NCBI GenBank assembly: GCA_965220845.1
Contig: CBDCRA010000004.1
Location: 603,708 to 667,707 of the forward strand
DNA length: 64,000 nt
Direction: 5' to 3'
Origin: Candidatus Multivorans sp.
GTDB lineage: Bacteria > Acidobacteriota > Thermoanaerobaculia > Multivoradales > Multivoraceae
A program made the translations under genes and the position numbers. Positions within the stretch are counted from its first letter, which is position 1, and every line of letters starts with the position of its first letter. The notes beneath the pieces were generated by a model that was not told where the DNA came from, did no database searches, and was given only the letters and a program-made list of their open reading frames with translations. This document shows, piece by piece, positions 33,333 through 34,604 of the stretch.

Positions 33333-34604
33333 CTACCAGCCAGGCAGGGCGCGCCCCCACCACGTCTGGGGCGTGACCCGCCGCCCGCGCCGGCTTCGGC
33401 GGTCGAGCCAGAGGGCGAGCCGGCGCAGGCGGGTCCCCGCCATCCACCTCCAGAGCCGGCTGAGACGTCTGGAGTAGTCCCGGTTGTAGGGGCAGACCCG
33501 GACGCAGATGGAGCAGTCGGTGTTCTGGTTCGACCAGAACCGGAAGCACTTCTCGGCGTCCGTCGTCCATTTCCGGACGCCGCGAATGTTGGAGATGTTG
33601 TAGATCCGATCCGTCGGCGCGTCCATCGCGATGGCTTTCGGCGGGCACGCATCCGAACATGCGCGGCACACTTCGCAGGTCTCGCGAACGCCGAAGCGCA
33701 ACGGACGGTCGTGCGCCAGGGGCATGTCGGTGAAGATCTTCCCGAGCCGCACCCTGGGGCCGAACTCCCTGGTGATCAGCAGCCCGTGACGGCCGTACTC
33801 GCCCAGCCCCGCCTTGATCGCGAGCGGAATCGCCAGGGCCGTGTCGTTCATCGTCGGCACCGCGGCGTAGCCCATGTTCAGGATGTACTGGGCGATCGAG
33901 AGCAGCACCACCGTGTCGCTGCTGTAACCCACCCCCGTCGCCGTCCCGCTCAGGGCCGACGGCACGGTCCGCACCAGATTCCGGTCCATCGCCTGCGCAA
34001 TGACGACGACATTTCCGAGTTCGCCCGGGAGCTCCTGCGGTTTCTCCGTCTCGTTCTCCCGCGAGTACGCGTGGGTGTACACCCAGCGCTCGTCGTTTGC
34101 AGTAATGCCGATCAGGTCGGCGCCCAGCGCGTGGGCGGCCGTCTTCAGATCCGCGGCGAGTCGAGCGGCGAGGACATCCTCCGGTTCGTCGCTCTCGTCC
34201 GGCGGACCCGGACCGTCCCGGAGCACGCTGTAGGGGTCGAGGAAGCCCTCGCGACGGTCGGCGCCTCCCCGGAGCTCCGCGAACAGATCGGTGACGTGCC
34301 AGGAAGCGTTGCGCAGCGCGTAGTCGCGCCGCGTGAACCCGTCGACCGGACGCCAGCGCAGCTCCGGCGTGCGGTACGTCTCGTAGAACATGTCCGAGCG
34401 CGAGGTCCTCACCTCGGGATCCCAGAACGAACGGCAGAAGACGTCGTCCTTCTGCGAGAAACGCTCGAAGCCCTCGCCTACCTCGAACCCCGCTTCGGCA
34501 TCACTCACTGGGGGTGCTCCGCGCTGCTGCCCGGCCTTCACGGTCGCACGCCCCCCCGTTCCATACCGCGTCAGGTCAGGGCCTCGATGAACTGCGCCGC
34601 CCAC
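33333..34604 (-). CDS. reductive dehalogenase / epoxyqueuosine reductase (QueG) family protein (cobalamin + two [4Fe-4S] motifs); N-terminal extent uncertain, no Tat signal seen
   Basis: C-terminal CEVCRACSDACP and C-x9-CSICVRVCPYN ferredoxin-like motifs. Preceded by the GLGEYGRHGLLITREFGPRVRLGKIFTDMPL block shared by RdhA/QueG enzymes. Confidence 0.6.
   Translation of the reverse strand: MGGAVHRGPDLTRYGTGGRATVKAGQQRGAPPVSDAEAGFEVGEGFERFSQKDDVFCRSFWDPEVRTSRSDMFYETYRTPELRWRPVDGFTRRDYALRNASWHVTDLFAELRGGADRREGFLDPYSVLRDGPGPPDESDEPEDVLAARLAADLKTAAHALGADLIGITANDERWVYTHAYSRENETEKPQELPGELGNVVVIAQAMDRNLVRTVPSALSGTATGVGYSSDTVVLLSIAQYILNMGYAAVPTMNDTALAIPLAIKAGLGEYGRHGLLITREFGPRVRLGKIFTDMPLAHDRPLRFGVRETCEVCRACSDACPPKAIAMDAPTDRIYNISNIRGVRKWTTDAEKCFRFWSNQNTDCSICVRVCPYNRDYSRRLSRLWRWMAGTRLRRLALWLDRRSRRGRRVTPQTWWGRALPGW

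Follow-up and report, generated by a model that had tools for sequence, protein, structure and literature searches.

The window analysed here is a stretch of 64,000 nucleotides (nt) from Candidatus Multivorans sp. (Acidobacteriota; contig CBDCRA010000004.1, positions 603,708 to 667,707). Between otsA and msrP it carries a minus-strand gene for a relative of RdhA, the catalytic subunit of reductive dehalogenases, which we call the RdhA-like protein. We propose that it is a soluble, stand-alone, cytoplasmic and non-respiratory reductive dehalogenase of the RdhA type, with a corrinoid site and two [4Fe-4S] clusters in one chain of 391 amino acids (aa). We give this reading a probability of about 0.6.

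The open reading frame (ORF) listing of the window contains the minus-strand ORF at 33333..34604 with a length of 423 aa, as expected from an earlier note on this DNA that described a protein of ~420 aa. The gene itself is probably shorter. In relatives from several lineages, the conserved core of the family starts at SDAEAGFEV, and the N-termini are unrelated upstream of that point. The database protein P0003, which is identical to the RdhA-like protein, has 391 aa and begins at the same position, and a GGAG lies ~10 nt upstream of a GTG codon at 34508. For these three reasons we placed the gene at 33333..34508 (minus strand), with a TAG stop at 33333-33335 and GTG 34508 as the probable start; judged from the sequence, the first 32 codons of the mechanical ORF are probably untranslated. 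With this start, 62 nt separate the gene from the otsA stop codon, instead of an overlap of 34 nt, and 95 nt separate it from msrP on the other side.

Profile searches placed the protein close to reductive dehalogenases. Pfam returned Fer4_16 and Fer4_7 matches and a score of 24.4 bits for Dehalogenase (PF13486; threshold 24.3), and the NCBIfam reductive dehalogenase model TIGR02486 gave 157.4 bits (cut-off 160.35). Among sequences in the PDB, PceA of Desulfitobacterium hafniense ranked first (4e-50), followed by PceA of Sulfurospirillum multivorans (8e-47), NpRdhA (3e-26) and QueG (4e-11 and 5e-7); chance cannot account for similarity to the RdhA proteins at this level. A profile of 107 diverse relatives aligned with residues 22-441 of S. 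multivorans PceA (E 2e-111), indicating that the N-terminal region is homologous too and that PceA merely has extra insertions. An AlphaFold model computed from the same 107-sequence alignment reached a predicted local distance difference test score (pLDDT) of 92.4 and a predicted template modelling (TM) score of 0.93; it replaced a model based on a shallow, family-only alignment (pLDDT 60.8). When the predicted model was compared with the PDB by Foldseek, PceA structures matched with TM-scores of 0.70-0.78 (E 5e-29 at 0.78), NpRdhA with ~0.74 over the catalytic half, and QueG with 0.36-0.40. No further significant match was found in the PDB (next E 0.19). The hidden Markov model (HMM) scores, the fold comparison, the phylogeny and the active-site residues described below all agree with the earlier assignment to the cobalamin/Fe-S proteins of the RdhA/QueG superfamily, and the protein is very probably an RdhA-type B12/Fe-S reductase.

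The active-site positions were compared with those of characterised enzymes; residue equivalences were counted by hand in the HMMER alignments (the PDB matches and the profile against PceA). All segments named here lie on the minus strand. The N-terminal RdhA motif FERFSQKDDVFCRSFWD (34419..34469), which in relatives with a twin-arginine translocation (Tat) signal stands right after the signal peptide, contains F56, aligned with PceA F38. The segment WHVTDLF (34281..34301) provides W102 (PceA W96), F108 (PceA Y102, in the active-site wall) and H103, which is invariant and family-specific. In TGVGY (33924..33938), Y227 is the counterpart of the proton donors PceA Tyr246 and NpRdhA Tyr426, and T223 that of PceA T242 and NpRdhA S422. 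N253 (33846..33848) corresponds to PceA Asn272. The corrinoid-core block GLGEYGRHGLLITREFGPRVRLGKIFTDMPL (33717..33809, residues 266-296), previously recognised by its GLGExGR signature, holds R286 (33747-33749), which corresponds to Arg305 in PceA and to Lys488 in NpRdhA. The first [4Fe-4S] motif, CEVCRACSDACP (33642..33677, residues 310-321), has the CxxCxxCxxxCP pattern noted before, and its cysteines are invariant in the 107-sequence alignment. The second, C353-x10-C364xxC367xxxC371P (33489..33548), reads C353-x10-CSICVRVCP, with ten residues after the first cysteine rather than the nine given earlier; it includes W357, which is W376 in PceA and R552 in NpRdhA.

All eight Fe-S cysteines are present and are invariant in 107/107 aligned sequences. 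Y227, R286 and N253 align exactly with the catalytic set of PceA and do not vary within the family. In the 86 RdhA-like sequences outside the family, the tyrosine is kept in 99%, the asparagine in 98%, the arginine in 94% and the eight cysteines in 100%. The tyrosine of PceA (Tyr246) and of NpRdhA (Tyr426) is thought to donate a proton, and Tyr426 and Lys488 form the catalytic dyad of NpRdhA (PMC7565698). The RdhA-like protein agrees with PceA at both positions that distinguish PceA from NpRdhA (R286, Arg/Lys; W357, Trp/Arg). PceA W56 falls in an insertion that is missing from the family, and PceA Y382 corresponds to Asp363. Several invariant, family-specific residues (H103, D230, M252, Y270, N359 and N361) adjoin the catalytic positions, and the alignment suggests that the pocket of the family is more polar than that of PceA.

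The absence of a Tat signal and of an RdhB anchor, both stated in the earlier note, was borne out. The RdhA-like protein lacks an RRxFLK motif and a hydrophobic N-region, as well as any window resembling a transmembrane segment, and a hydrophobic segment ahead of the conserved N-terminal motif was found in 0/118 family members. A search for an rdhB candidate, i.e. a small ORF with several transmembrane segments, gave none at 29-39 kb. Among distant relatives (30-51% identity), those of ~430-520 aa have RRxFLK just before the motif RF.QKN..F.R..WD, and those of ~340-420 aa begin at the motif. As the shorter relatives start where the signal of the Tat-bearing ones ends, the family represents the PceA-type core without an export signal. 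The protein is thus very probably cytoplasmic and non-respiratory. For a cytoplasmic enzyme with no membrane anchor and no quinol-oxidising partner, energy conservation as in organohalide respiration is impossible.

A neighbour-joining tree was calculated from a 180-residue core of the 107 relatives, the two PceA proteins, NpRdhA and E. coli QueG; as a distance tree on a short core, it is not reliable for deep branching inside the radiation. A large radiation united the two PceAs with all relatives and excluded QueG and NpRdhA (84/100 bootstraps). The RdhA-like family was monophyletic (99/100) and sat in a wholly Tat-less clade together with P0121, P0125, P0129 and P0130 (98/100). Over the core, it is more similar to the two PceAs (42% and 40% identity) than to QueG (33%) or NpRdhA (31%). 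The protein had been likened earlier to a cytoplasmic RdhA-like clade. This is correct insofar as the clade lacks Tat signals and is distinct from QueG, but a grouping with the catabolic BhbA/NpRdhA type was not recovered; the clade falls in the PceA-type radiation.

Apart from QueG, the RdhA-like protein can be compared with three groups of known proteins. With PceA (S. multivorans 4UQU; D. hafniense 8Q4H) it shares homology over the full length, the N-terminal motif, the corrinoid core, both [4Fe-4S] motifs and seven matching residues (PceA F38, W96, T242, Y246, N272, R305 and W376, here F56, W102, T223, Y227, N253, R286 and W357). Unlike PceA, it has no Tat signal peptide, no RdhB anchor and no respiratory complex; it is ~70-110 residues shorter, lacks several insertions including the one with W56, and has polar residues near the active site. 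The catabolic, oxygen-tolerant enzymes NpRdhA, BhbA and JtRdhA resemble it in being cytoplasmic, without Tat signal or RdhB, and in the catalytic tyrosine (Y426, here Y227), and the C-terminal helices of NpRdhA align up to the final WW. However, NpRdhA has ~700 aa with a vestigial N-terminal cobalamin-binding-like domain, and the RdhA-like protein aligns only with its residues 342-615; BhbA and JtRdhA carry a fused NAD(P)H reductase, and both the extra domain and the reductase are absent here. This catabolic architecture, with a vestigial domain and/or a fused reductase, has been described previously (PMC12219181). In addition, Lys488 and the phenol-binding Arg552 of NpRdhA are replaced by Arg286 and Trp357, and NpRdhA lies outside the clade. 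The third group are the "simplified cytosolic" RdhA-like proteins of ~395 aa from cold-seep metagenomes (PMC12219181), which are similar in size, have no Tat signal, RdhB or vestigial domain, and are likewise known from sequence. They come mainly from Desulfobacterota and Chloroflexota, and their authors group them with the cytosolic NpRdhA-related clade, whereas the family described here is one of Acidobacteriota and Gemmatimonadota and clusters with sequences of the PceA type; this separation is made by description. Tat-less and RdhB-less proteins of ~395 aa have already been noted (PMC12219181) and catabolic Tat-less RdhAs are well studied (PMC7565698), but the clade itself is uncharacterised. 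A literature search covering the clade, "Candidatus Multivorans" and reductive dehalogenases of sponge symbionts found no paper describing the clade.

Relatives are numerous: clustering at 50% identity gave 5,700 representatives at E<=1e-3 and 403 at E<=1e-30. A genome scan detected relatives in 475 species genomes, and the locus counts given from here on rest on the best 80 loci. Among these, 24 come from metagenome-assembled genomes (MAGs) of Acidobacteriota (Candidatus Multivorans, Thermoanaerobaculia, "Holophagales") with 87-97% identity; the closest match to the window is OZ242040.1, a complete Candidatus Multivorans sp. genome with a 97% identical orthologue at 2,862,164-2,863,432. The other 56 are almost all from Gemmatimonadota MAGs (Longimicrobiales, Candidatus Palauibacter) with 67-75% identity. 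Many of the MAGs appear to originate from sponges or corals, as read from isolate codes and names such as Candidatus Palauibacter irciniicola. Palauibacterales have been described as facultative aerobes of sponges and marine sediments, in which btuB and btuF are present and B12 synthesis is absent (PMC10469786). A third lineage, represented by P0104 (67% identity), recurs in JGI, ENA and SRA/Logan metagenome samples whose habitat is not evident from the records, and the family may therefore not be confined to sponge and coral hosts. Three Gemmatimonadota sponge MAGs, namely Ca. Palauibacter denitrificans SB0661_bin_40, RHO1_bin_69 and RHO3_bin_72, carry two copies on separate contigs (L042/L049, L059/L071 and L065/L074); elsewhere, each locus has a single copy.

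Sequence conservation within the family is strong. Identity across phyla is 66-75%, the mean column identity of the family alignment is 66%, and 162/391 positions are invariant among 21 aligned members from several lineages. The ratio of non-synonymous to synonymous substitution rates (dN/dS) against seven Acidobacteriota orthologues was 0.09-0.17, indicating that the gene is under purifying selection. We also considered synonymous divergence between the phyla as a test for horizontal gene transfer; it is uninformative, as the proportion of synonymous differences (~0.53) is at the saturation level for ~85-90% GC at third codon positions.

The genomic context differs between lineages. The order otsA - rdhA-like - msrP - ampG, with otsB and a trehalase-like gene of glycoside hydrolase family 15 upstream, is kept in the 24 Acidobacteriota loci (L001-L024), although msrP lies several kb further off in two of them (L011 and L014). 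Synteny with otsA and msrP was found in 0/56 Gemmatimonadota loci (L025-L080) and in none of the other lineages examined. The location next to msrP and trehalose genes, pointed out in the earlier note, is thus real, but it carries no functional signal, and as the synteny is limited to Acidobacteriota, we rejected the idea that msrP, otsA, otsB or the trehalase-like gene is functionally linked to the rdhA-like gene. In the window, msrP (32128-33237, minus strand, E 1e-101) has a Tat signal and follows the rdhA-like gene on the same strand, with no terminator detected between them. It stands without msrQ/yedZ alongside, and the next gene is a convergent ampG-type transporter of the major facilitator superfamily (30463-32064). 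A promoter and terminator scan of 31.9-36.3 kb gave nothing exceeding the expectation from shuffled sequence.

About half of the 56 Gemmatimonadota loci have an ATP-binding cassette (ABC) exporter, the rdhA-like gene, a DUF885 protein and a class I/II aminotransferase in this order, with variable spacing. A DUF885 protein is also encoded in the window (59869-61440, minus strand), 25 kb from the rdhA-like gene; it is 32% identical to the one (L025, 9221-10999) encoded after the rdhA-like gene at 26 of the Gemmatimonadota loci, and no link is implied. Another lineage, taken to be marine and free-living, has the order PadR - ABC-like ATPase - rdhA-like. At the P0101 locus (L089-L092), an AA_permease and a Flavin_Reduct protein are encoded near the rdhA-like gene; at the locus of the sister protein P0121 (L087), a divergent MarR, an SNF-family transporter, a Flavodoxin_2/FMN_red protein and SelR/MsrB are found; in a further lineage, FGE-sulfatase genes and threonine synthase are nearby. 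Flavin-reductase or flavodoxin-like genes thus lie within ~2 kb in two related lineages and are possible electron donors. Possibly, the transporter and flavin-protein neighbours of the P0121 and P0101 lineages hint at the substrate class and the donor; they are not family-wide. No partner gene common to the whole family was found across the lineages compared. The enzyme must presumably depend on general cellular donors.

The window contains several other features. A complete SspABCD DNA-phosphorothioation module is located at 49799-56223 (PADLOC E-values 1e-103 to 0), with SspA at 49799-50983 (minus strand), SspB/DUF4007 at 51057-52013, SspC at 52013-55384 and SspD at 55381-56223. The region is a low-GC island (0.60-0.65, compared with ~0.70 elsewhere), and its flanks (45107-49580 and 56360-58327) encode a ResIII/DEAD helicase, a HATPase_c_3 protein and a GmrSD_N/NsnA-like nuclease. 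The whole has the appearance of a defence island gained by horizontal transfer. Genes for haem (tetrapyrrole) biosynthesis form a cluster at 16682-25865, which comprises a fused hemC-hemD (16682-18616), hemL (18617-19915), ferrochelatase (20564-21979), hemA (21980-23383), hemE/URO-D (~23.4-24.5 kb) and an amine-oxidase-type protoporphyrinogen oxidase (~24.5-25.9 kb). Uroporphyrinogen III is thereby provided, but the window contains no cobalamin-specific genes. Two eukaryote-like proteins are encoded, a full-length Peptidase_M2 of the angiotensin-converting-enzyme family (14775-16706, minus strand, E 1e-219) and a GPP34 (Golgi phosphoprotein 3) domain protein (38690-39403, plus strand); both are unusual for bacteria and fit a host-associated lifestyle. 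Finally, the convergent neighbours at 2355-4124 (plus strand) and 4331-6601 (minus strand) encode two class-I E/Q-type aminoacyl-tRNA synthetases, one GlnRS-like (tRNA-synt_1c C-terminal domains) and one GluRS-like (Anticodon_2).

Taking the residues of PceA and NpRdhA as a guide, cleavage of a carbon-halogen bond is the probable reaction of the RdhA-like protein. A low-potential donor of general use in the cytoplasm (ferredoxin or flavodoxin), and ultimately NAD(P)H, would feed electrons through the two [4Fe-4S] clusters to the cobalt of the bound corrinoid. The reduced cobalamin would attack the carbon-halogen bond of an organohalide in the pocket, the halide would depart, and Tyr227, with its pKa tuned by Arg286, would protonate the carbon. 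Catabolic RdhAs without a Tat signal tolerate oxygen, and a combination of ferredoxin, flavodoxin reductase and NADPH can drive them (PMC7565698). Most likely, the RdhA-like protein acts on a halogenated compound entering the cell, which it either detoxifies or makes ready for assimilation. The hosts make a brominated aromatic compound from a marine or sponge source our best, though tentative, guess for the substrate.

Several observations weigh against a dehalogenase. TIGR02486 stays narrowly under its cut-off and PF13486 barely exceeds its own. Close to the catalytic positions, the family has invariant polar residues of its own (H103, D230, Y270, N359 and N361), in contrast to the hydrophobic pocket of PceA, the surroundings of the gene are of a housekeeping kind, and no regulator, transporter or electron-transfer partner is kept across lineages. 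No gene for cobalamin synthesis or uptake lies within the 64-kb window. The literature searched yielded no biochemical characterisation of a clade member or of any other PceA-type RdhA without a Tat signal. The uniformity of the family fits one fixed physiological substrate, as in QueG, better than a variable substrate of the pollutant type.

This last point leads to the main rival reading, in which the protein is an RdhA-fold B12/Fe-S reductase with a conserved, non-halogenated physiological substrate; "dehalogenase" would then be a misnomer for the clade. A precedent is QueG, which is the only other branch of the superfamily with a defined function; it reduces an epoxide and is no dehalogenase. 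The extreme uniformity documented above, the polar family-specific residues beside the catalytic positions, and the usually single, stand-alone gene in a housekeeping setting with no rdh-type regulators would suit such an enzyme. Yet the protein retains the complete Tyr/Arg/Asn set by which dehalogenating RdhAs are defined, the sequence is nested in the RdhA radiation far from QueG, and all characterised proteins of that radiation are dehalogenases (PMC7565698), so that we consider a non-halogenated substrate rather unlikely. An identification with QueG itself, i.e. a divergent epoxyqueuosine reductase of the organism, is very hard to credit. JGI calls one cluster member "epoxyqueuosine reductase QueG", and the two proteins have in common a cytoplasmic, stand-alone nature and the superfamily core with its GLG..G(R/K) corrinoid loop and two Fe-S motifs (27% identity with E. 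coli QueG over 288 aa). However, the QueG model TIGR00276 gave 68.4 bits against a cut-off of 200 and matched at model positions 122-249 alone, a Pfam scan of the protein did not find DUF1730, the QueG-specific N-terminal domain, TM-scores to QueG structures are 0.36-0.40 compared with 0.70-0.78 to PceA, and QueG is an outgroup in the tree. The RdhA N-terminal motif region and the catalytic Tyr/Arg/Asn are present. The protein is therefore not a canonical QueG, in agreement with the earlier note, and clear orthology to QueG was not found. Besides the rdhA-like gene, the 64-kb window has no second RdhA or QueG homologue.

Two further explanations were considered. One is a respiratory RdhA that is exported by hitch-hiking on a Tat-bearing partner, such as the adjacent MsrP, and serves organohalide respiration. 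The sequence is indeed nearer to respiratory PceA than to catabolic NpRdhA, and msrP is co-directional, downstream and equipped with a clear Tat signal. But rdhB, rdhC, rdhK, rdhT and a transmembrane segment are all absent, the signal is missing from all 118 family members, msrP is adjacent in none of the 56 Gemmatimonadota loci or the other lineages examined, and the literature portrays the Gemmatimonadota hosts as organotrophs with a facultatively aerobic lifestyle (PMC10469786), which makes respiration of this kind very improbable. The other explanation, which we regard as a long shot, is a housekeeping enzyme for "halogen damage" or "halogen salvage", that is, a cytoplasmic B12-dependent dehalogenase for halogenated tyrosine-like compounds in host-associated and marine bacteria. 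Candidate substrates would be 3-bromo- or 3-chlorotyrosine formed by host hypohalous acids, or bromotyrosine metabolites of sponges; the products might return to amino-acid metabolism, and the enzyme would be the B12-based counterpart of iodotyrosine deiodinase, which uses flavin. Indications of this recur, although each is weak: a single, fixed and highly conserved sequence in different phyla, the polar family-specific residues of the pocket, hosts that inhabit sponges rich in organobromines, genes for methionine-sulfoxide repair adjoining in two unrelated lineages (msrP here and SelR/msrB by P0121), and amino-acid transporters or aminotransferases adjoining in three lineages.

To our knowledge, the biochemically understood reductive dehalogenases are either periplasm-facing respiratory enzymes or large catabolic enzymes of the NpRdhA/BhbA type. 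Read as a dehalogenase, the RdhA-like clade would represent a third, minimal format, in which a PceA-like catalytic core is kept in the cytoplasm without a partner, in facultatively aerobic Acidobacteriota and Gemmatimonadota, many of them apparently living in sponges and corals. Public names for its members disagree ("4Fe-4S dicluster domain-containing protein", "reductive dehalogenase" and "epoxyqueuosine reductase QueG"), and a defined function would therefore correct many records. If active, the protein would be a small, soluble, possibly oxygen-tolerant and easily expressed dehalogenase. Should the substrate turn out not to be a halide, the clade would provide only the second non-dehalogenase chemistry of the superfamily. 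Sponges are rich in natural organobromines, and with an active enzyme of this kind, abundant sponge symbionts would be consumers of organohalogens.

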